Origin: Squalus acanthias
Lineage: Eukaryota
Assembly (NCBI GenBank): GCA_030390025.1
Contig: CM059432.1
Span: forward strand, 18,106,001 to 18,170,000
DNA: 64,000 nt
Reading direction: 5' to 3'
The notes below the pieces were generated by a model. The model was not told the origin of the DNA, did no database searches, and worked only from the letters and a program-made list of their open reading frames with translations. This document shows positions 24,022-61,414 of this stretch, in pieces. The position numbers and the translations under genes were made by a program. Positions within the stretch are counted from its first letter, which is position 1. Each line of letters starts with the position of its first letter.

Positions 24022-24448
24022 CATAGAAACATAGAAACATAGAATCTAGGAGCAGGAGTAGGCCATTCGGCCCGTCGAGCCTGCTCCGCCATTCAATACG
24101 ATCATGGCTGATCATCCAAATCCAGTACCCTGTCCCTGCTTTAATCCCCACAGTACACATATCCCACCCTACCCCCGTAACCCCACGTATTTAATTCCCC
24201 CTAACATATCCCATCCTATCCCCATAACCCCACATATTTAATCCCCCCTAACACTAAGGGTCAATTTATCATAGCCAAATCAACCTAACCCACACATTTT
24301 TGGACTGTGGGAGGAAACCGGAGCACCCGGAGGAAACCCACGCAGACACGGGGAGAATGTGCAAACTCCACACAGACAGTCACCCGAGGTCAGATTCGAA
24401 CCCGGGTCTCTGGCGCTGTGAGGCACCAGTGCTAACCACTATGCCACC
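24022..24448 (-). mobile_element. HE1-type V-SINE with CR1-derived tail
   Basis: tRNA-like head, V domain GTGGAGTTTGCACATTCTCCCCGTGTCTGCGTGGGTTTCCTCCGGGTGCTCCGG, (TTTCTATG)n tail. Confidence 0.9.
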
Positions 24449-43522: not shown

Positions 43523-45214
43523 TGTAAAGTTTCGCAATTATCGCGATTCGAAATAACAAGATAGAAGCAGATTCGGTTGGTCAGTTTATTTAAACGAAAT
43601 GCTGTCCTGTTATAAAGGACACAGAAGCCTATAAAATGGCCGCCGAGCATCGTGGCAGAAGCTTCCAGAATTACAGTGGGCAGACAAGATGGCGTTCGAA
43701 TATACATTTCAATATAAGACGGGATCATGCTCGATGGGCACTGATGGAGACAGGATGCAACCTGTTTGCATTCGAAACAATAGCAAAAGATGTGAGTGCT
43801 GGAATCGTTTTCCATGCACAAGTAAGGACCATTGTACTGGGCAATCGAAGGCCCATCCAGACACATCAATACACAAATACCCCCACGGCTCTACAATGAG
43901 AGAGCCATTCTCGGGTGATTAAACCAGTATTCGGGGGCCCCCAAAACCCAGCCAGGGAGGCTCCTAGCCGGTCCAACAATGAGGAAAACATTAACGGGTA
44001 GTTGGCCAGTTTCAGGTGCTACCGAAACCCGTTAAGGAAAGAATCGCCCCATGCTGGGAGTTTTGAGCGCCAATATTTCACAAAGGACAAACATTAAGAT
44101 TTGAGCGGGAGATAAGGGGACACAGCACTATAACTATAGACAACAAATGTCCATCGCTCTCTTATTCGCTTGATTCGTGCTCTTATCTCTGCGGACTCTT
44201 GACTCGGGCTGAACTCTGCTGGACGAGCAGCCTTCTGTGTTTTCTCTGGACTCTGTTGACCCTGGACTTTCAGCCGCACTGGACGGTTATTCGAATGTTG
44301 GGTGAAGCTCAATTGGAACGAGTCGCCCCGACGAAGGCCAATGACCGGGTGCACCATCCCGAGAGTCGGTAAACGGTGTTTGGACCCGAAGGCCCAACAA
44401 GACGAGACGAAATGACAAGAGAAGAAGAAGAATCCACGTGCCACCGCGGTCAGTAAACCCCGACCGCGCCCGAAAATATATGACCCATTTCTTGAACTCT
44501 ATAGGTTACTGCACGAACCGGTCAAAGACTCTTCTTTGAATTCTACCGGCAACTGGTGTCGGTACAGGAAGACTTTTCTTTGAGTTCTACAGCCGGGCCC
44601 GAGTTCTGTCGAGTTCTTCATGACAACGGGGAGCCCAGCCTGCTTGTCGCAGCAGTGAAAATAAACAAGTGGGGTACAGAGACCCCTCCAAACACGTGAC
44701 AGTCAGGCGCTGCAGCGAAACGAGCCGAGTGCCTCACTTTAAAATTCTCCGAAGTATCACGAGTGGTGAGCATGTTTCCCGATCCTACAAATCTAGATGT
44801 AGTGTAGGTATTGATAGGGGAGGGTGGTTTTATTAAGGATAAAGTATAATGTGTTCCCCTTTTTACGATGTGCCGTGCGTTCTTCATTACCATAGACCAA
44901 GCTTTATGAATGTATGTATACTTGTACTCTCGTTAATTTGCGCCTATGACATGTACTTCATGATCTTGGACGCTATGCAATAAAGATTTCCATTTCGTAC
45001 TATTCAACCGGGTCTATTTTGAGTTTTTCTCTGCATTACTGCTCTCGCACCTAAGTCCAGTGTTAGAACCGTAAGGGTGAGTGGGTCGGACCACTCACAG
45101 GTGCTTATTGCAACAAGGCTGGCTGGAGACCAGAGCAAGCAATAGTATTAGGCAACGAAGGCCTAACCTCGCACCAGCACCATCTGCGATACAAGCACGA
45201 CAAAACCCCTTACA
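43523..45214 (+). repeat. 5' LTR (1692 bp)
   Basis: TGTAA...TTACA termini; direct repeat of 55008-56699; AATAAA at 44979-44984. Confidence 0.97.
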
Positions 45215-45219
45215 GAAAA

Positions 45220-45237
45220 TAGCGACCACGGCAGGAC
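45220..45237 (+). promoter_or_regulatory. Primer-binding site, tRNA-Arg-like (TGG changed to TAG)
   Basis: TAGCGACCACGGCAGGAC, 5 nt after the LTR; resembles the complement of the vertebrate tRNA-Arg(TCG) 3' end as recalled. Confidence 0.7.
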
Positions 45238-45290: not shown

Positions 45291-47042
45291 ATGGATGAGA
45301 GGGTAGCCGACTATGTGTTTGGGAAGGTTAACTTAACCAAAAGGTGGATAAGTGACCTACTGATGGATAAGCGTCCGCTAGACGCAGCCATCAAATGGAC
45401 AGGCAGTAAAGAGCATAAGAAGTCGGTGGAGAAAGCGGACTGGCTGATGTGCTACAAGAAGCAAGTCGAACTTTCGGACCAGGTCATTGTGGCACAGGCA
45501 GCTCAGATCAGGGATTTGGAAGTTGAGATGGAGGAAAAGATCACGGGAGGACAGAAACTCATTGCATCCTTGAACGCGTTACATCAGGAACGCCAGATAG
45601 TAGCCAACCACCATGAGGCTAAAATTGAGTACCTAGAGTGTCAGGTCACAGAAGCGAAACTAAACGAGGGTAGGATTAGAGAGTGGTGTGCCCGCCTAGC
45701 TAACCAGATAAAAGCCCAGGAAGAAAGCTTGAAGGGAGTTAGGGCGGCATATAAGATGGCCCTCGAGGATAGGCATGAGGGAGCCAACCACAGTGTTTGC
45801 CAGAAGGAGATAGGGAACCTAAGAGAGGCTCTGAATAAGGCAAACGGCTTGGTGTGCCTCATCAGCCCGTCAGAAAATCAGCCACAGGTGGGTAGGGAAT
45901 TCCCAAAATCCCTACCAGACAAAGCAGAGGAGGTATTGGCCACTGTGCCCTCCGCGCCTCCCAGCTATTCGGCAACCTGGGTAAGGGAGGAAGTGGTGGA
46001 AATAGAAAAGGAGGTTCCCGAGCTAGGACAATCCCCGGAGGTAGAGTCGAGCCCGGGACCGATGTGTCCGCTCCGAGGTCACAAGAGAGGCCCGAACGCA
46101 GCCAATGGGGATGCCGGGGATGTCCTGAACCAGCTGGTATTGCCCCACAGCTCACACCAGCTGAGAGCAATGATTAGCCATGTACGGAAGCTGTCCGAAT
46201 CAGACGACCCTTCCGTACACTTTAGGGAGGTAGAACAGACCGCAGCAATTAATGGCTGCGACGATGTGGAAAAGACCAAAATGTTGCTGTTCTCTTTAGA
46301 TAGCTCGATCCTTCAGTGTCTCTCAGACGAGAGCAAGAAGGGAAATAAAACCTATGGGGAGTTACGGGACGAGGTCCTAGAAGTGTTAGGGGCGGATGAC
46401 GAAGGTCCGTTCGTCAGATTGGGTCAGACCGTACAGATGGAGGGAGAACCCCCGAAGGTTTTCGCCGACAGGCAGTGGCCAGTATACCAGCGTAGCTGCC
46501 CAGGTGCGCCAGCGCGCACCTATCTGGACGGTGCCGGTCTAACTCATTGGCTCAGGTGTTTAGTAGCCAACAGTTTGCCAGCCGTCAGGGAGCAGGCCAA
46601 AGCGTGGTTTGATCCCACTAACCCCGCCACAACAGAGGAGTCGGTCCTAAATCGACTCACGATAGGGTATCGGAACACTAGGAGCACGGGAGCGCGTCCC
46701 CTTAAGGGAAAGGTGCATGAGGCACGGCCCGCAGCCCCGGCTCAAAAGGAGTGGCATCAGGAGGGTAACCGCGCCACACAAGCCAGTGGTGCTTGCTACG
46801 GGTGCGGGAAGACAGGTCACTGGCGTAAGAACTGTAGGAACCCCTGGAAGGACCCCAGGGATAAAAATCCCGCAGCCTGAACCCAAGCGCCTGTCTCTGA
46901 GAGAGGAGCTGGTGTGCCTATCCATCCCGATGCGATAGAATCAATGTTGGGAGCTATGCGGTCCCTTATGATTTCGCAAGGAAGGGTGGCAGTCGCTACC
47001 GGCCCCACAGATGTCACGACCCCGTCCACCAGTACCCAATGA
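45291..47042 (+). pseudogene. gag: gag (coiled coil, PSAPPSY, capsid-like region, CCHC); internal TGA at 46878-46880, presumed natural stop at 47040-47042
   Basis: CYGCGKTGHWRKNC knuckle; first in-frame ATG after the PBS at 45291; frame stays open between the two TGAs. Confidence 0.85.
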
Positions 47043-50000
47043 CTAGAGCCCGCGCAGCCCGTTTACCTGTGTCCGCTCAGCTATGGTGCGTGGAAAAGAC
47101 CCCTGGTTGAGATGGAGGTAGAGAAGCAGAAGGGTAGTTATTTGTTGGACACGGGAGCTTCATGCACCGTGATTCATACGGATAGCCCCTTTGACTCACC
47201 ACTGTCTACCAAGGTCCCATTCACATTAGCGGGGTTCACGGGAAAAGAGCAGGCTGGCGCGTTCTCCATTCCGCTCTCCATTCATTTAGGAGCACTCCAC
47301 ACCACATGGAAGTGCATACTGATGAAATGGCAAGAGGGGGGTGGCAGAGGTATCCTCGGATCGGATCTCCTATCGGAACACGGGATCCTCGTGGACCTTA
47401 GGAATCACTGTCTCTGGGGAGCCAAGGGTGGGAAAGGCAAGGTAGTTGTTATCCCGGGGAAGGAAGGTAAAGGGGCCCTGTGTACCATGAAGCCATCCGG
47501 AGGTTACGACCTCGGGCTTATGGTCGCGGATGTCCCAACGGACATGCAAACGTACGTGTCAGATAATATGCACGCGTTTGCAACCCACAAGCATGATTGT
47601 GGGAGGGTTACCGGGTTTGAGGTCAGCGTAGATGGGGACCCCATGACCCGGCCCCAGAAACAGTATAACTTCCCCAAAGAAGCAGAACCCGATATGGAGA
47701 CAGCAATGTCCTCCTTGGTGCAGCAGGGCGTGTTGAGGCCGATAGCCACACACGTGAACTCCCCATTATGGCCGGTGAGGAAGCCGGATAATTCGTGGAG
47801 GGCCACGGTGGACTACAGAGTCCTTAACAGTAACATCCCCGCCTGCGCGCCCACAGTAGCAGCAGTTGCTGACCTAATAGGGAGTATCCCAGCGTCCGCG
47901 ACCACGTTCACGGTGCTGGATATCTCGAACGGATTTTGGTCCATCCCGCTGCGGCGAGAGGACCAGTACAAGTTTGCCTTTACTTTCAAAGGACAACAGT
48001 ACACATGGAACTGTTTGCCACAGGGTTTCCACAACAGCCCCAGTATTTTCCATCCGTGTATGGCAGGAAGTTTAAAGGAGTTTAGTCAGCCCAATCAGAT
48101 AGTGCAGTACGTGGATGATTTGCTCCTGTTCACAGACTCAAGGGAGGAGCATGGACCACTGCTAGCCGAGTTATTGGAGCTGCTAGGGAGAAAGGGTTTT
48201 AAAGTTAACCCTAAGAAAGCACGTATCGGTCAGCAGGAAGTAAAATTCCTGGGTCTGACCATTCGCGCTGGGGAAAGAGCCATAGATAAGGCTAGGAGGG
48301 AGTTGGTGCAGGAGTTACCGATTCCCAACACCATAACGGGTGTGAGGTCCTTTCTGGGACTGATCGGTTACTGTAGAGACTTCATCGAGGACTATGCGGC
48401 CACAGCAGCTCCGCTGCTCCGACTCCTCCATAAGGGAGTGGAGTGGTCTTGGGACGAGGGTTGTCAGGCAGCATTCGAGAAGTTAAAAAGGGATCTGCAG
48501 ACCGCGCCAGCTTTAGGGGCCATAGATGGGGGGAAGGAGTTTTTCCTGGAGGTAGCTGCCAGCAGAGACAGCTTGAGCGCCGTGCTGCTCCAAGAGCGTC
48601 ACGGCAAGCTGAGGCCGGTTGTCTATTCGTCCAGGGTGTTAACGGATGTGGAGAGGAGTTTCTCCAATTGCGAAAGGCATCTTTTAGCCACGCATTGGGC
48701 TGTGAAAAGATCAGCGATCTTCACAGGGCTCTCTCCCATCACTCTCCTCACCCATCACACACCAACTAAGATGCTTCTAGATGGGAGGATTAAGGATGGG
48801 ACCGTAAGCAGCGCTCGCATTGCGCGCTGGACCCTTCTCCTTTCCCAGATGGATCTTAGAGTTAAAGATCTTTGCGAGCCCAGGCTTGCGGCCAACTTGG
48901 TATACCCCGGAACAGCCCACCGGTGTTCGGTGGAAGGGGTGTGGGAGGTCAACATAGGTTTGTGGGCCGGGATACATCCCATAAGTCGCGAGATTTATGT
49001 TGATGGTTCCAGCACAGTGTCCGCTGGCGAATGACTCACAGGGTGTGGAGTTTATGACCCTGCGGCAAACCTTGCCCTGGCAATTAAACTCCCCAGCACC
49101 ATGAGTGCGCAGCAGGCTGAGCTGTCTGCGGTGGCGTATGTCGTTACCCACCCAGAAATTTTCCCAACCCCATACACGATTTGTTCGGACAGTATGTTTA
49201 CGTGCAATTCGTGTACGGAATACCTGGCCATTTGGTCCCGCCGTGGTTACACCTCCGCGGACGGGCGACCTTTAACGGTGAAGCCCTTGCTGGAAAAGAT
49301 CCTAGCAGCAGTAGGGGAGGAAGGGGAGATTTTCATCCATAAGGTGAAGGCTCACTCCTCCACAGGGCCCTGTGGGGAGGGCAACCAGCAGGCGGATGCG
49401 CTAGCCAGGGAGGGTGCCCGTAATGGCATTTTCTGGGACCCCTATGGACCCGGACCCGTGGCAGCGATCCAAGGTAGGGACGGGAATCCCGGGAACACCA
49501 GGGTAGCACTGCCCCTAGACCTTAAGACCGTCCAGAACCAGGATCCCGCCCTAAAAGCAGTTCTCAGAGCGATTACTGAGGGCAAGCAGGTAGAGGGCCC
49601 GTACAGTACGGCAACCCTCTCTGTTAAAGAAGGCATGCTGTTCCGCGAGGAACAGTGGGTTGTGCCGCAGCAGCACAGGAGGGAATTCCTCCAGTTGGCT
49701 CATGAGGGGCCGGGGGCAGGGCACCCCGGGCCCGAGGTTACCTGGCAACGGGTAGAGCAGGCGGGATGGTGGCCGGGACTCAGGGAGCAGGTCCGCGAGT
49801 TCTGTGCAAACTGTCTTGTGTGCGCTGCAAACAACCCAGACCCCCAGAAAAGGAAAGTGCACATGGGGCACATCAGGAGGGTGGAGGGACCATGGCAGTC
49901 AATACAGATCGATTACATAGGGCCCCTGCCCACCACCCAGGGAGGCTACAAATACTGCCTCGTCTTGGTGGATGTGTTTTCCAAATGGGTAGAAGCCTTC

Positions 50001-50967
50001 CCCTGTAGAACAGCTACGGCGCTGGGTACTGCGAAAATCTTGGTCCGGGAAGTGTTCTCGCGGTGGGGGCTCCCCCGTTTCGTGGAGTCAGACCAAGGGA
50101 GTCATTTCACTGGCCAGGTGATGCAGAACACCCTCATGCTTTTGGGCATTGAAGGGAAGTGGCACGTAGCGCACAATCCCCAGTCATCCGGAATTGTTGA
50201 ACGCATGAACTGGACCCTGAAGGAGAAGCTGAGGAAAGAGACTATGAACTCGCCCCAAAAATGGGCTGAGGTTCCGCCTCTAGTCCTCATGGGGATCCGG
50301 GCCAGTCAGTCGAAAAGTACGGGGTACTCCCCGTACGAGGTGATGACTGGGAGGATCATGCGAACCCCCACCCATGTACTAGCGCCGGTGCTCACTGAGG
50401 ATCAGCTCCAAGAGGTGAAAAGGGACAAGTTTGTCCCGACCCTCTTGGAGCGCCTGAAGCAGGTTTATGAGCAGGCGGCTGGGAACATGGGAAGACAGCA
50501 CCAGGGCAATCGCCTGTTGCTGGAACCCCGCAAGAAGCAGGAGTGGGAAGTTGGAGATCAGGTCATGGTTAGGAACTATGCCAGAGTAGGGAGTTTGGAA
50601 CAACTGTATATGGGGCCCTACAGTATTGTAGATAAAGCGAGTCCCATGGTGTACGCCGTAAAGGTACTTCGGCGCACGAAATGGTTCCACATTAACCAGT
50701 GCAAGTTGTATAAGCCGGGTGCACAAGGGCCAATCACAGGGGCCAAAACTGCGAGTGGGGACTCGCAGCCCCGGGTAGGACCGCAGGGCACACAGACCGG
50801 TAAAGCAGCCTGCTTGAGGGGAGAGGACATTCTAGAAAAGTGTAGGATCTTTTCTTGGTGTTGGGATTCAGATGAGGAAGAGCTCGAGGAGCTCGACCAA
50901 GGTAGTGACCCGATCGGAGAGGTGCTGGGGTCGGAGGACGAAAGTTTCGTCCTCGACTCAAGCTCAG

Positions 50968-51323
50968 GGGAGATAGGGACTGCGAGTGGAGTTCCACACA
51001 GGGTGGAGCCAGAAACTGCAGATCCCGAGCCCAGGGGGGCGGAGCTAGGGGAGACGGAGCCAGCGGCTGTGGTAGGACCACAGGTCGTGATGGTGGAAGT
51101 CTCGGTACCCGGTCCGTCGGCCCTGGAAGTCTTGCCCTTGGGGGAGGTAGGGATTGCGAGTGGAGGACCACATACTGGGCCAAGTAGGGTGGAGCCAGAA
51201 ACTGCAAATCCCAAGTTCAGGGGGGCGGAGCCAGGGGAGACGGAGCCAGCGGCTGTGGTGGGACCACAGGCCGCAACGGTGGAAGTCTTGGTTCCTGGTC
51301 CGTCGGCCCTGGAGATCTTGCCC
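50968..51323 (+). repeat. Two in-frame repeats of about 175-185 bp in the integrase C-terminal tail
   Basis: GEIGTASG...PGPSALEVLP / GEVGIASG...PGPSALEILP. Confidence 0.9.
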
Positions 51324-51338
51324 AAAGTAGCCCTCCGT

Positions 51339-51794
51339 GGGCAACACGGTGGCATAGTGGTTAGCACTGGTGCCTCACAGCGCCAGAGACCCGGGTTCGA
51401 ATCTGGCCTCGGGTGACTGTCTGTGTGGAGTTTGCACATTCTCCCCGTGTCTGCGTGGGTTTCCTCCGGGTGCTCCGGTTTCCTCCCACAGTCCAAAAAT
51501 GTGCGGGTTAGGTGATTTGGCTATGATAAATTGACCCTTAGTGTTAGGGGGGATTAAATATGTGGGGTTACAGGGATAGGATGGGATATGTTAGGGGGAA
51601 TTAAATACGTGGGGTTACGGGGATAGGGTGGGATATGTGTCGGTGCAGGCTCGATGGGGATTCTGTGTGAGGGGGCAGGGACAGGGTACTGGATTTGGAT
51701 GATCAGCCATGATCGTATTGAATGGTGGAGCAGGCTCGACGGGCCGAATGGCCTACTCCTGCTCCTAGTTTCTATGTTTTCTATGTTTCTATGT
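51339..51794 (+). mobile_element. HE1-type V-SINE inserted into the pol tail
   Basis: Near-identical to 24022-24448; (TTTCTATG)n tail. Confidence 0.92.
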
Positions 51795-52260: not shown

Positions 52261-54610
52261 ATGGAACGGATTCTGATAGTGCTCGCAACGATCGGATATG
52301 GATTGGCCTATCGGGGCCTCACCAAGGATGTCGTTGTGTTTGGTTGCTCCGGGGACACGGCCCCCATCGCGACGGATGGGACCGGGGAGCGAAAGGCTGA
52401 GGAGACCGCCACTTATTTCCACAAGGGAAGGTGGCCGGGATGGCTGGGAACGAATTCGACGGAATACTCCAGCGCATCCGGATTTGCCTACAAAGAGACT
52501 TCTTTACTGTGCCCCAGAGTGAGGATCATTGCACCCAGAATCAGCGTCACCGTCGGCAAAAGGATTTGTTTGACATGCAATGGGAAGGTCCCATTGAGCC
52601 GATGGTGGTGGTTACGGAAATTAAGCAAGACTATGAGAAATTCCTCGGTTGAGTGGGAACGATTGGGTAACAATACCCATCGGACAATTACGGGGACTAA
52701 CGGACAATTGAAAGTCTGTTGGGACAAATGGTGGGAACCGGATGAGGGAATATATGTTTGTATGTGGGGATCGAAGTACGTTTGCCCCAAGGGTATATCC
52801 ATATTTTTCGTACACCAGTGGCAGGATAACGGGAAAGGGATGAGGTGGGATGTTAGCACCAAGGGGTGCGGAGCTCCATTCTCCCCGATCCCGGTAAACG
52901 CCACTGAACTCATCACGCGCCCACGCAAGTCTCCGCCCGCGATTCCGGTGGTTTTGGCTCAGGAGGAAGGGTGCCCTAAAACCACTAAGGGGACCGGGAA
53001 TGGTTTGGTACTGGTCCCAACAGACCAGATACTATTTCAGGGGGTACATTACGCGGTGGCTTCGGTGATTCTAAATCTCACCGAGGTGCGTTTACCAGAG
53101 TGGTGTCCCAAAGAAACGGAACAATTGTACCAGGTCCTGTTGACAAACATGTTCAGACAATTCTACGAGTTTGATTTTGCAGAGATTGACAAAAAAAGCT
53201 TGTACACCACACCACACGAAGTTTTGGGTCAGGTGGGGAGACAAAGAAGGGGTGTTGTGAACGATGTGTTCACTGCTTTTAATACAGGAACATCTGTGGT
53301 CAACGCTCTAGACAACGTGGAGCTGCAGACCCAGATCAATGGTTTAAAAACACAATTGAAAAGCATCCTCACAAGCGAAAACAAGGTAGTAGGGTCTGAG
53401 TTACACGAGGACCAGGCCATGACACTACACTTAAAAGAGATTATAGCAGAGCTGGAGAAGCATGCGAGAACGGTAAATGCCCTGATCAGGGAAGATCGAA
53501 ATGCATCCGATCAAGCTGCGCAGAACGAGGTGTGCGTACTATACGGGGCGTGGTTACTGGGCGAGGGCCGCAGTAATTTGGAGGATTTAAAACAAGGTTT
53601 GGTCCCGTCCTGGATAAGTAACAAACACCTGCAGGTGCTCCAACCTTTTCAGAACGCATTAAGCCCGTGCCAGTTCAGGCTAGCCTCAGAGGCATACCCA
53701 GTCCCCGTGGACTGCGGACGGTCAAACCATACTATCATGGGTATAGTACTACGTATGCCGGTGTTGGGCAACACAGCAAAGCCCGCCCCGGTGTATCGGG
53801 TGGAGAACATTGTTGTCATTCAGGGGGGAGCCCACATTCGCTACGCAGCGGTCCCACCTTACGTCATCCGCTGGGAGCAAACGATGACAGGTACCGACCT
53901 ACCGGGTTGTCGTGGCCGGGGAGCACACATAATACTGTGTCCCCAGCACTTGAATGCCTTTCTAACACCACAATGCGGGTTCAGAACGGCTGGCGCCAAG
54001 CCCATGAATTGCACCATGGAGGCAATGACACAAGATCATGTGCCTCCGCAGGTGGCATACATAGGGGGTGGAACATATTGCGTTACCACTGCAGCGCAAC
54101 ACTACCAGCATGGAAACCACAGCCGGTGTCCGGTGAGTGACAGCAGTTTCTGTTTTAAACCCAGGGCTGAAGTTCAAGTGGCACAACAGCGAATTGTCCC
54201 GATCCCTGAACCATCCTGTTCATCTTAATGTAAAAGAGAATTTCACCGACTTGCAGCGATTCGTCGCGCGTTTCGGATACATCATTCCCCCTCTCCCTGT
54301 ACACCTCACCAAACTTTTGAAAGCCGTTGCGGTATCACAAAAACATTTTTACACCCTGGAACAAAAGACTGTAGAAATAGGGACAGAAATTTTGGACATA
54401 GTAATCCCACCGTGGTGGGATCTGTTCACTAATATTGAAGTTCCTTCATGGATCAGGATAGCCTCCCACATTTTGGTAGTGTGCCAAGTTATAATTGTAG
54501 TGTACCTATTGGTCGTGCACTGCAAAAGAGGCAAACGCCTCACAAAGCAGGAGAACACAGGGGAGTGGAGAGAACGTTACGTGCGCGTGAACGAAGAGAG
54601 TACTGCGTAA
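52261..54610 (+). pseudogene. env: env: signal peptide, Ig-like domain, class I fusion (F-like) ectodomain, TM; one frameshift near 54215
   Basis: Hydrophobic N-terminus; RQRR|GVVNDVF cleavage site and fusion peptide; heptad repeat; Cys-rich region; TM ILVVCQVIIVVYLLVV in the 54137-54610 frame. Confidence 0.88.
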
Positions 54611-54995: not shown

Positions 54996-55007
54996 AACAG
55001 GAGGGAC
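54996..55007 (+). promoter_or_regulatory. Polypurine tract
   Basis: AACAGGAGGGAC directly before the 3' LTR. Confidence 0.7.
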
Positions 55008-56699
55008 TGTAAAGTTTCGCAATTATCGCGATTCGAAATAACAAGATAGAAGCAGATTCGGTTGATCAGTTTATTTAAACGAAATGCTGTCCTGATATAA
55101 AGGACACAGAAGCCTGTAAAATGGCCGCCGAGCATCGTGGCAGAAGCTTCCAGAATTACAGTGGGCAGACAAGATGGCGTTCGAATATACATTTCAATAT
55201 AAGACGGGATCATGCTCGATGGGCACTGATGGAGACAGGATGCAACCTGTTTGCATTCGAAACAATAGCAAAAGATGTGAGTGCTGGAATCGTTTTCCAT
55301 GCACAAGTAAGGACCATTGTACTGGGCAATCGAAGGCCCATTCAGACACATCAATACACAAATACCCCCACGGCTCTACAATGAGAGAGCCATTCTCGGG
55401 TGATTAAACCAGTATTCGGGGGCCCCCAAAACCCAGCCAGGGAGGCTCCTAGCCGGTCCAACAATGAGGAAAACATTAACGGGTAGTTGGCCAGTTTCAG
55501 GTGCTACCGAAACCCGTTAAGGAAAGAATCGCCCCATGCTGGGAGTTTTGAGCGCCAATATTTCACAAAGGACAAACATTAAGATTTGAGCAGGAGATAA
55601 GGGGACACAGCACTATAACTATAGACAACAAATGTCCATCGCTCTCTTATTCGCTTGATTCGTGCTCTTATCTCTGCGGACTCTTGACTCGGGCTGAACT
55701 CTGCTGGACGAGCAGCCTTCTGTGTTTTCTCTGGACTCTGTTGACTCTGGACTTTCAGCCACACTGGACGGTTATTTGAATGTTGGGTGGAGCTCAATTG
55801 GAACGAGTCGCCCCGATGAAGGCCAGTGACCGGGTGCACCATCCCGAGAGTCGGTAAACGGTGTTTGGACCCGAAGGCCCAACAAGACGAGACGAAATGA
55901 CAAGAGAAGAAGAAGAATCCACGTGCCGCCGCGGTCAGTAAACCCCGACCGCGCCCGAAAATATACGACCCATTTCTTGAACTCTACAGGTTACTGCACG
56001 AACCGGTCAAAGACTCTTCTTTGAATTCTACCGGCAACTGGTGTCGGTACAGGAAGACTTTTCTTTGAGTTCTACAGCCGGGCCCGAGTGCTGTCGAGTT
56101 CTTCATGACAACGGGGAGCCCAGCCTGCTTGTCGCAGCAGCGAAAATAAACAAGTGGGGTACAGAGACCCCTCCAAACACGTGACAGTCAGGCGCTGCAG
56201 CGAAACGAGCCGAGTGCCTCACTTTAAAATTCTCCGAAGTATCACGAGTGGTGAGCATGTTTCCCGATCCTACAAATCTAGATGTAGTGTAGGTATTGAT
56301 AGGGGAGGGTGGTTTTATTAAGGATAAAGTATAATGTGTTCCCCTTTTTACGATGTGCCGTGCGTTCTTCATTACCATAGACCAAGCTTTATGAATGTAT
56401 GTATACTTGTACTCTCGTTAATTTGCGCCTATGACATGTACTTCATGATCTTGGACGCTATGCAATAAAGATTTCCATTTCGTACTATTCAACCGGGTCT
56501 ATTTTGAGTTTTTCTCTGCATTACTGCTCTCGCACCTAAGTCCAGTGTTAGAACCGTAAGGGCGAGTGGGTTGAACCACTCACAGGTGCTTATTGCAACA
56601 AGGCTGGCCGGAGACCAGAGCAAGCAATAGTATTAGGCAACGAAGGCCTAACCTCGCACCAGCACCGTCTGCGATACAAGCACGACAAAACCCCTTACA
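55008..56699 (+). repeat. 3' LTR (1692 bp)
   Basis: Same length as the 5' LTR, about 21 substitutions, no indels seen. Confidence 0.97.
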
Positions 56700-58946: not shown

Positions 58947-61414
58947 GGGCTAAAAATTTGGGGGCTTTACGGCACCCGTTACCCGCAAAAAATCACAAAA
59001 ATCTTTCTCCAGCTGGCGGCGGGTCTGGCAGTGTCCTCGGTTTTCCTTGGCCCAGCAGCGCTGCCGGTAAGATGCATCGCCCTGCAAATTAAAATGAGGG
59101 AGCAATGACTGCGCGCCGACTTAACGTCAGCACGGCGAACTTGGACCTTTGCGTTGTGTTCAGCGCTGGCTCCTAAACTCGCCCTGTAAACGCAGCGTGC
59201 AAGCAGACTCACAGAGGCACTGTCAGCAGCTCTTAAAGGGACACACACATCTTTCAGGTAAGTTTGCATTGAAGCTTTTGGACTGGTTTTTTTTTATTTT
59301 ACTCAAGTAGCGGCTTGCTGCAATAGATGTTAAAAGTTTTTTAAGTGTGTAGGGTGTGCTGCTGGATGCTTGCAAGGCCTCAGATAGTAAATGAAGGCCT
59401 CTGAGAAGACAGAAAATGCTGCCAATACTCAGCTGGTCAGGCAACATCCGTGGAGAGGGAAACAGAGTTCATGTCTCAGGTTAAGATGCTGCCTGACCTG
59501 CTGAGTATTTCCAGCATTTTATGTTGTCATTTCATATTTACAGCATCCGCTCGCAGAGGGAAGAGGAAGACGCAGAAGGGGAAGAAACAGAAGATGAGGA
59601 AGCAGAAGAGGAGGAAGCAGAAGATGAGGAAGCAGAAGAGGAGGAGGCAGAAGAGGAGGCAGAAGAGGAGGAGGCAGAAGAGGAGGAAGCAGACGAGGAG
59701 GAGGCAGAAGAGGAGGAGGCAGAAGAGGAGGAGGCAGAAGAGGAGGAGGCAGAAGAGGAGGAGGCAGAAGAGGAGGAGGCAGAAGAGGAGGAAGCGGAAG
59801 AGGAGGAGGCAGAAGAGGAGGACGCAGAAGAGGAGGAAGCAGACGAGGAGGAGGCAGAAGAGGAGGAAGCAGAAGAGGAGGAAGCAGAAGAGGAGGAGGC
59901 AGAAGAGGAGGAAGCAGAAGAGGAGGAAGCAGAAGAGGAGGAGGCAGAAGAGGAGGAAGCAGAAGAGGAGGAAGCAGAAGAGGAGGAGGCAGAAGGAAGG
60001 ATGCAACCCAGACAGCCTCTATCTGGCTGGGATATCAGGGATGGAATCAGCCGCCTGCGGTCCCAGTGACCACAACCCCAATTCCCTTTTCAACTTTAGT
60101 CCCATATCTTACCTTCCCTCTGTTACTGACCATCACAGCGTCCTCTTGGCCACAATGCTGAAATGAAAGCCACCACAAAGCAAACTTTCCAATCCAACTT
60201 TATACATCTATCTATCCAATATGACATCAAGAAATCAACTCATCACCCTTATGCATTCTCTTAGTGACTGTCTTGTATGGGCCTTTGCCTATCCTACTCA
60301 TGTCACACAGGTGGCTGGGAGTGTCAAATCAAATGACAGTGTTTCTTCTTCTTCTTCACTCTCCTCTCCCTCTTCTTGGTCAAGCACTGGCTGGGCAGGC
60401 TGCATTTCTTGGGTGTGTGAAATGAGGAAGGCACAAGGGTGGAGTTGTGTGAGGGGAGGGTGGGAAAGCAGAGGTGCATGCCAGAAGGAGGATAACGTAT
60501 GAGGATACTCAGCATCTTGTATCCTTTCAGCCCCTGGCCAAGGGCTCAACCGTGCCCCTGCCAAGAAGGGCCTGCACTGTCTCCTCCAAGGGGGTGAGGT
60601 GAGGTGAGGGAGATGTGCCTCATCATTGGTACAGATTGTTGGTAGGTGAGTGATTGGGGGAGGGGAGGTCATGCATTGAGCAGTGTGTGAGGCTAGTGGT
60701 GCAGTTGGTAGGAGACGGCTTTTGAAGATGCAGTCACTGACCTTGACCAGTGGTCTGAAGTCATGAAGCTTCTTTGGGCACTGGAGCCAGGTGGTGTGGG
60801 CGACACTGCTGGCAGTGATGCCCTCGGTGATGTGGTCCCACATCAATCTTTCTGGAGAGCCTCCTGACCACTGTGGGTAGAGGACCCCTCTTGCAGTGTT
60901 GACCCCCTGCACAAAGCTGGAGTGCTGCGTGCGAGACCCTGACGGCCCCTTCCCTGGCTTGCCATTTGTGTTAGTGCTGAAGCATGTTTCCCATTTTTTG
61001 AGATTCGGAAGGTAATTCAGCTTTAAGTGCTGAAGACTCCCATTTGGGACTTCTTTTTAATGTTTATTTTTTTTTTAAAAGGCAGTGAGGGCTGAAAACT
61101 GCCTTTTTTCACTTCATTTTAATTTTTATTAGTTCAGAAGGCATTGCCCTTTTAATTTCCCACTATTCTGAGCGAACTCGATAGCCTTGCTACCAGAGGC
61201 TGGAATGCCGCTTCAGGACAGGAACTTCGACTCCCATGCCTGCGCTAACGCCACCAGGAGGGCGTTACACGGTAAGTTAGCGCTGGGCTAAAAACCTTTA
61301 GCCCCTAGTGCGAATTTTTCCCTGGTAGCACTTCGTCCATTTTCAACGGCCGTTAACCCGAGTTGCTGGTGACACTGGACACTCTCGTGGTGACCTCATA
61401 TTTCCCCCCCCCCG
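58947..61414. mobile_element. Internally deleted Harbinger element
   Basis: Minus-strand Myb remnant WLQCPKKLHDF (60298-60965) convergent with an acidic transposase-like C-terminus (59550-60069); ends uncertain. Confidence 0.55.
59557..59995 (+). repeat. 15-bp purine minisatellite (GAGGAGGARGCAGAA)n encoding EEEAE
   Basis: About 29 units visible directly. Confidence 0.95.

Follow-up and report, generated by a model that had tools for sequence, protein, structure and literature searches.

A probable immunoglobulin-like domain ahead of an F-type fusogen in the envelope protein of an endogenous retrovirus from Squalus acanthias

An endogenous retrovirus (ERV) in the genome of Squalus acanthias probably encodes an envelope protein (Env) in which an F-type (class Ib) fusogen is preceded by an added N-terminal head of approximately 220 residues, whose core appears to be a diverged immunoglobulin (Ig)-superfamily domain. 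A single copy of this element, with two 1692-bp long terminal repeats (LTRs) flanking gag, pol, and env, is located in the window (the whole stretch of 64,000 nucleotides that was analyzed). Its env frame extends from the ATG at 52261 to a stop at 54228 and encodes 655 amino acids, and the following parts could be distinguished:

52261 to 52308, + strand: env start and probable signal peptide (residues 1-16), a hydrophobic N-terminus
52309 to 52509, + strand: N-terminal arm (residues 17-83) before the Ig domain, with pLDDT below 50
52510 to 52812, + strand: probable Ig-like domain (residues 84-184) with C106/C167, W115-117, and two more conserved Cys pairs, C103/C153 and C84/C175
52813 to 52971, + strand: Cys/Trp segment and Pro-rich linker (residues 185-237), the least conserved part (45-53%)
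52972 to 53250, + strand: F2-like segment, ending at a furin-type site, RQRR (53239-53250)
53251 to 54228, + strand: F1-like ectodomain, with a fusion-peptide position, a helical region, and a Cys-rich region
54458 to 54514, + strand: env transmembrane (TM) segment, in a different reading frame in this copy, with a short tail to 54610

The Ig-like domain is set apart from the signal peptide by about 67 residues, and about 53 Cys/Pro-containing residues lie between it and the F2-like part. Domains of the Ig superfamily (IgSF) are characterized by B- and F-strand Cys residues 55-75 residues apart, a C-strand Trp, and a D-x-G-x-Y-x-C motif. Such a signature had been noticed in a preliminary description of this DNA and was confirmed codon by codon in the env frame: the codons at 52576 (TGC) and 52759 (TGT) encode C106 and C167, are in frame with the ATG at 52261, and are 61 codons apart. 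Trp 115-117 are found 9-11 residues past C106, and the second Cys is embedded in D161-x-G163-x-Y165-x-C167, so that C106, W117, and D161-G163-Y165-C167 reproduce the superfamily motif.

Profile searches pointed in the same direction. The Pfam comparison suggested in the preliminary description did return an Ig_3 match on env, at a score (16.9 bits, E 0.0095) below the curated cut-off of 30, and Ig_3 matches were found in 13 of 17 related modules, which are not independent rows and all remain under the cut-off (best E 0.0045). A host Ig_3 profile built from 30 exons of the same genome, one of which (L168) had been taken from the wrong strand and was kept as noise, scored 9.2 bits against the module with HMMER; the maximum in 500 shuffles was 4.1 bits and none reached the score of the module, placing the signature beyond chance. 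Moreover, an HHalign alignment of the module with a host I-set profile (probability 64.5, E 6e-5) covered 73 columns, in which strands A', B, C, D, E, and F matched up in register. A host V-set profile (18 exons) was not significant, being equaled by 85 of 500 shuffles and reaching 1.1% in HHalign. Because the host I-set profile could be aligned and the V-set profile was not significant, the sequence favors an I-set over a V-set assignment. The closest identity of the domain to any host protein was 25%, and sequence and profile searches of env against the PDB found nothing significant. In the ESM Atlas, the domain matched Ig clusters at 0.90-0.92 with the 10 best matches all in one clan, a result that rests on 145-158 shared features and on a clan agreement that one third of shuffled proteins also reach.

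Predicted structures gave a similar but weaker picture. A single-sequence AlphaFold model of residues 76-200 had a pLDDT of 39 and was set aside, while a model based on 26 sequences (mean pLDDT 38.6, with core blocks at 49-61) is predicted to follow the Ig strand order. When this weak model was used in Foldseek, 43 of the 46 PDB rows listed were, by their titles, antibody, VNAR, TCR, or IgSF (CD147, obscurin) structures, with E values above 0.02 throughout and no row at 0.001 or better. In the structural check, the matches to the predicted model were mostly of Ig type, at a core pLDDT of 49-61 and at E values above 0.02. These fold matches were mostly V domains, a class that dominates the PDB, whereas the sequence favors an I-set. 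In VIA, model residues 67-159 could be aligned at Z 4.2-4.7 to domains of TCR, antibody, nectin-1, NKp44, and obscurin, with an rmsd of 2.8-3.6 A across 72-92 residues. The first ranks, up to Z 5.1 and tied with the Ig chains, went to beta-sandwiches outside the IgSF (phage baseplate, pilins), and Z values of at most 5.1 are, according to the tool, at a level that may reflect no more than a common arrangement. A BFVD fold search with the head model found nothing with an E value of 0.001 or lower.

Support for an Ig assignment therefore comes via four partly independent routes (Pfam Ig_3, ESM Atlas, the host I-set profile, and fold search), and residues 84-184 are likely to adopt an Ig fold. 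Another beta-rich, disulfide-bonded fold outside the IgSF, with the motif arising by convergence, would be consistent with scores that all lie under curated thresholds, with the phage baseplate and pilin sandwiches that led the VIA results in a tie with Ig chains, and with an atypical C'-D region and W-D-K-W-W stretch. This explanation seems quite improbable, given that five signature positions are in register over 73 columns and that language-model, profile, and fold searches agree on one clan.

The conservation of the domain among copies and relatives was also investigated. The signature residues are invariant in all 30 young copies. Among 35 more diverged modules of the same env family (family A), which include skate and sawshark records, C103, C106, W117, C153, and G163 are present in 35, C84 and C175 in 34, and Y165 and C167 in 33, although the Cys counts are partly built in because the modules were cut by a motif requiring C-x-x-C and a downstream Cys; D161 is replaced by Glu in 29 of the 35. 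The expectation that the Cys, Trp, and D-x-G-x-Y-x-C residues would be kept among copies was hence borne out (30/30 young and 33-35/35 diverged). In the young copies, pN/pS in the Ig part was 0.10 when shared changes were counted and 0.23 when private ones were, similar to the corresponding values for F2 (0.12 and 0.37), all of which are biased downwards because the best-scoring copies were picked. Comparison of the Ig part with seven diverged relatives gave dN values of 0.25-0.32 with saturated dS in all seven pairs, which agrees with purifying selection; dN/dS in other copies had been among the checks proposed in the preliminary description. Identity to these relatives was 56-65% in the Ig part, 61-76% in F2, and 45-53% in the linker, and the N-terminal arm is 47-61% identical in diverged relatives; the Ig core is thus better conserved than its flanking segments. 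Many Trp residues of the domain are invariant. Judged by this conservation, the Ig-like domain appears to be a working part of Env and not a passenger. Conserved N-glycosylation sites were also observed in and beside it.

The part behind the head is assigned, from its sequence features, to the F-type fusogens, in agreement with the earlier view that a fusion protein of this type follows the Ig domain. In the ESM Atlas, residues 236-652 matched Baculo_F/Gypsy clusters at 0.95 and Fusion_gly F0 clusters at 0.93, with 197-208 of 256 features in common and with clusters that carry these families on 24-61% of their members. Pfam found no F family match (PF00523, PF12259) on env, and one F0 chain was matched in the PDB search at only E 1.5. 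Downstream of RQRR (residues 327-330) come a segment that is conserved yet rather polar, then a helical stretch, and then a part rich in Cys. All class Ib parts, namely a signal peptide, furin site, fusion-peptide position, helical repeats, Cys-rich region, and TM segment, could be found; in this copy the TM segment is in a different frame, and an unusually polar sequence occupies the fusion-peptide position. Lokiretrovirus (loki) Envs have Ala/Gly/Leu-rich fusion peptides, whereas the shark env has a polar segment here. At the fusion-peptide position (53251-53310), the pattern N-T-G-T-S-x-x-N-x-L-D is kept across env families.

On the basis of layout and precedent, we consider it an evenly balanced proposition that, once Env is cleaved, the head remains part of the F2-containing subunit and binds to the target cell. 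Cleavage would take place at RQRR, the head would remain on the N-terminal, F2-containing subunit and lie on the exterior of the trimer, and it may there bind a cell-surface receptor or attachment factor, doing the job of the H, HN, or G protein of paramyxoviruses. No separate attachment gene was seen among the reading frames of this copy between pol and the 3' LTR. Receptor-binding domains are often variable, and the better conservation of the Ig core relative to its flanks counts against an attachment role. The same conservation, together with the extra conserved Cys pairs, the many invariant Trp residues, and the conserved N-glycosylation sites in and beside the domain, would fit a structural function, in which the domain caps, shields, or stabilizes the prefusion trimer and receptor binding takes place elsewhere in Env. 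Such a function appears unlikely, since loki Envs need no cap and the heads at this position differ between related env families, as swappable receptor-binding modules would. With regard to attachment, the headless state of all 18 loki Envs whose N-terminus is visible in the published material consulted and the different head of a second env family (family B) at the same place are favorable, as are the acceptance of N-terminal receptor-binding modules by the F scaffold, as far as described in the consulted parts of PMC11468914, and the N-terminal position of Ig-type receptor-binding domains (RBDs) on gamma-type Envs; against it, a head is apparently dispensable for the function of loki Envs.

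A further explanation is that virions or infected cells display the domain as an immune mimic or decoy, similar to viral CD200 or SIRP-like homologues. Viral mimics usually retain a recognizable likeness to their host counterparts, which counts against this reading, as the domain shows no detectable closeness to a particular host protein (25% identity at best). The host-like B-F Cys signature could be taken in its favor, and immune-receptor capture onto Env has a precedent in Env-Dbi, which keeps up to 12 of 19 SIRP residues that contact CD47; nevertheless, we regard a mimic as very unlikely.

The origin of the head was examined through its relatives. The named env relatives are from cartilaginous fishes only (Rhinoraja, Pristiophorus, Rhincodon, and Scyliorhinus). 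Family B (L031-L060), in the same genome, shares about 30% identity with the env studied here, and only from residue 238 on; it has a different Cys-rich head (e.g., L044:745-2946) and an RT that is only about 42% identical to that of family A. Family B is the older of the two, with a pair of CCHC knuckles in its gag, which ends in TAG (L102 and L103). In addition, an env variant of the same genome (L033 and L039) has an F2 and fusion-peptide region unlike those of families A and B. A divergent env with a third head was found in the sawshark Pristiophorus (P0015), in which C-x-x-C, a Trp 11 residues on, L-C, and Y-V-C occur at an Ig-like spacing, without profile support. Two gene models (P0005 and P0006) that fuse env pieces to Niban-like or zinc-finger genes are probably annotation artefacts.

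The preliminary description had proposed that the Ig domain was captured from a host gene, for which no backing was obtained: a search with a profile of env residues ~1-330 (N-terminal 360 columns) found no cellular donor among 1.84 billion representatives. The 15 matches to this N-terminal profile comprised 12 env relatives or fragments and three repetitive proteins matching outside the Ig part. The domain would have been gained before the shark and skate relatives diverged, and its most likely source may be a host IgSF gene whose identity has since eroded. Alternatively, it could have come from another virus or retroelement, or could be ancestral to the env lineage and have decayed in family B and P0015. 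In its favor, a C-x-x-C occurs at the corresponding position of the family B and P0015 heads, with further Cys residues downstream, and P0015 also has the Trp and Y-V-C. On the other hand, profile comparisons of the heads gave 3.8% between families A and B (equaled by one of 40 shuffles) and 2.1% between family A and P0015 (two of 40), and neither the family B nor the P0015 head was significant against the host I-set or V-set profiles. Homology of the three heads, although suggested by the motifs, was unconfirmed by these profile tests, and a non-host or ancestral origin is considered somewhat unlikely; it is compatible with an attachment function. As a tentative proposal, in which our confidence is a little under even, early-branching canonical retroviruses of cartilaginous fishes may have F-type Envs with exchangeable heads, one widespread branch carrying a host-derived IgSF receptor-binding module.

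Several known systems resemble parts of this arrangement. As far as the accessible parts of PMC7947760 show, the loki Env is likewise F-type, with a signal peptide, an R-x-K/R-R site, a coiled coil, and a TM segment; its F2-start and F1 motifs correspond by eye to those of the shark env (the F2-like G-x-G-x-V-L start matching the first loki motif), and the dual RNase H is alike. An N-terminal head is absent from all 18 loki Envs with a visible start (23 entries, of which 19 were compared and one is startless), which run from the signal peptide almost directly into the motif equivalent to residue 243. The Ig head is therefore not a standard part of the loki Envs published there. The gamma-type RBD-C and the SIRP-like RBD of Env-Dbi (bioRxiv 10.1101/2024.03.17.585361, parts consulted) also have an N-terminal Ig-type domain followed by a Pro-rich region, and Env-Dbi has the canonical B-F disulfide and one extra. 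These domains are found on class Ia gamma/alpha-type Envs, whereas the shark head is on an F-type Env, and the SIRP donor of Env-Dbi is recognizable by BLAST, whereas the shark head has no recognizable donor. According to the parts of PMC11468914 consulted, the coronavirus spike and foamy virus Env combine an F-like core with an add-on module, which in the spike is N-terminal, as here; the foamy virus RBD has its own fold and is inserted between the subunits.

The preliminary description knew of no account of such a single-chain attachment and fusion protein. The principle of building one on an F scaffold is known from the spike and foamy virus Env. In the material consulted, Ig-type RBDs and host IgV capture are already known for gamma-type Envs, as are added heads for F scaffolds. 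The full-text literature covered, mostly outside subscription journals, contained no account of an F-type retroviral Env with an Ig head, and the pairing was not found in the consulted parts of PMC7947760, PMC9040795, bioRxiv 2023.10.26.564294, PMC5210030, PMC10699275, PMC8672886, PMC4422223, PMC12583693, and PMC13709493. An N-terminal Ig module with a B-F cysteine pair on class Ib fusogens is not named in the accessible parts of PMC11468914 and PMC12583693, the latter of which (Viro3D) notes N-terminal extensions. If the present reading is true, the head would represent a third route to attachment on a minimal F scaffold, after spike S1 and the foamy virus RBD. Its Ig domain would be the second one with the canonical Cys pair on an Env of retroviruses, this time combined with an unrelated class of fusogen, and F-type env among retroviruses would extend beyond loki and foamy viruses. 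As the domain is small and separable, the receptor question is testable without a virus.

The lineage of the element was assessed from pol. RT scores were highest against MLV (213 bits), followed by foamy virus (194) and Ty3 (147), and the nearest named Pol relatives are from Xenopus, Pelusios, and Latimeria (45-52% identity). In quick trees (114 rows, and hand-picked subsets of 39 and 22 rows, with one loki reference, SnRV absent, and row labels taken from motifs, Pfam, and by-eye comparison), the RT joined ERV-L-, gamma-, and epsilon-like rows (SH-aLRT 99), while the basal forks were unresolved. Joining the RT to the sole loki-type row (P0050) was rejected at p-AU 0.039, which is modest evidence from one loki reference. 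The assignment to lokiretroviruses in the preliminary description was therefore not upheld, as the RT groups with canonical retroviruses; in the parts of PMC7947760 consulted, the loki RT belongs to a different clade (P-F-G-Y vs L-P-Q-G here). An F-like env and a dual RNase H are present as in loki, and the latter is common to all retroviruses. In a table of the same paper, six cartilaginous-fish genomes lack what seems to be the mark for loki presence. Foamy-like ERVs are described in the consulted part of PMC5210030 as having a Gag without a Cys-His box and GGGTG at the junction of the polypurine tract (PPT) and LTR; a foamy-like identity was rejected, with a CCHC knuckle in gag and GGGAC-TG at the PPT/LTR junction.

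The RT motifs match, by eye only, those of the snakehead retrovirus (SnRV) RT given in the PMC7947760 supplement, as far as consulted, and the element probably belongs to an early-branching, SnRV-like lineage of canonical retroviruses. SnRV-like ERVs are known from the elephant shark and have a similar in-frame gag-pol stop, according to the parts of PMC4977317, PMC4422223, and PMC12193657 consulted. The gag-pol junction is UAG in SnRV (PMC13517186) and UGA-CUA in the shark family, and the Env tail has 136 residues in the SnRV source material consulted and about 30 in the shark env. An F-type env on a canonical-retrovirus pol bears on whether F-type env is ancestral or was repeatedly acquired, a question raised in the accessible parts of PMC7947760 and PMC9040795. 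Searches with the RT against viral contigs, and with the env alignment and P0020 against metagenome contigs, gave no confirmed locus.

The remaining features of the provirus are as follows:

43523 to 45214, + strand: 5' LTR, 1692 bp, 98.8% identical to the 3' LTR by self-BLAST, ends read off the sequence
45220 to 45237, + strand: primer-binding-site-like stretch, starting with TAG here and with TGG in four other copies
45291 to 47042, + strand: gag, with one CCHC knuckle and a premature TGA at 46878-46880
47040 to 47042: family-typical gag stop TGA, in frame with pol
47043 to 51416, + strand: pol, with Pfam RVP, RVT_1, RT_RNaseH, RNase_H, and rve, in the order protease, RT, tether, RNase H, integrase
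54996 to 55007: purine-rich tract adjoining the 3' LTR upstream
55008 to 56699, + strand: 3' LTR, 1692 bp, from self-BLAST with ends read off the sequence
before the 5' LTR and after the 3' LTR: target-site duplication GAGG, seen in the sequence

The element in the window is a broken member of a young endogenous retrovirus family with a high copy number. Gag has its premature stop and pol an in-frame stop (49032-49034), a repeat insertion overlaps the 3' end of pol, and the env frame stops short of the TM segment, which is why the copy is called broken. The LTR pair differs at about 21 positions by self-BLAST, and this divergence of 1.2% corresponds to about 3 million years at a mammalian substitution rate; if the rate is ten times lower, as assumed for the elephant shark, the age becomes about 28 million years (both rates from the consulted part of PMC4422223). 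The N-terminal half of env has 7517 candidate matches in the 3.7 Gb genome. The 121 scored env copies, which are the best-scoring ones and not a random sample, are 96-100% identical, and 44 of these best-scoring copies have, by hand count, a 789-residue open frame without a stop within the match. A search of sequencing runs listed no RNA run with a match.

Some additional observations were made. The gag TGA stop is in frame with pol in three young and two older copies, four of which have TGA-CTA; its context in the window is CAA-TGA-CTA-GAG (47037-47048). PMC13517186 lists UGA-CUA as a readthrough context for alphaviruses and UAG for SnRV, so that the context found here is alphavirus-listed and not retrovirus-listed in that source. 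The repeat insertion over the pol end (51348-51793) is 93% identical, in reverse, to 24022-24448 and is probably a SINE. A direct repeat (89%) at 51000-51137 and 51186-51323 lies within the C-terminal extension of the integrase, which is acidic and Pro-rich, and a low-complexity tandem repeat at 59500-60070 reads as poly-Glu/Ala in one frame. Finally, among 10 family A copies checked upstream of env, four (L091, L094, L097, and L100) have gag but no pol and two (L093 and L098) have kept only part of pol, and these internally deleted copies still carry env.
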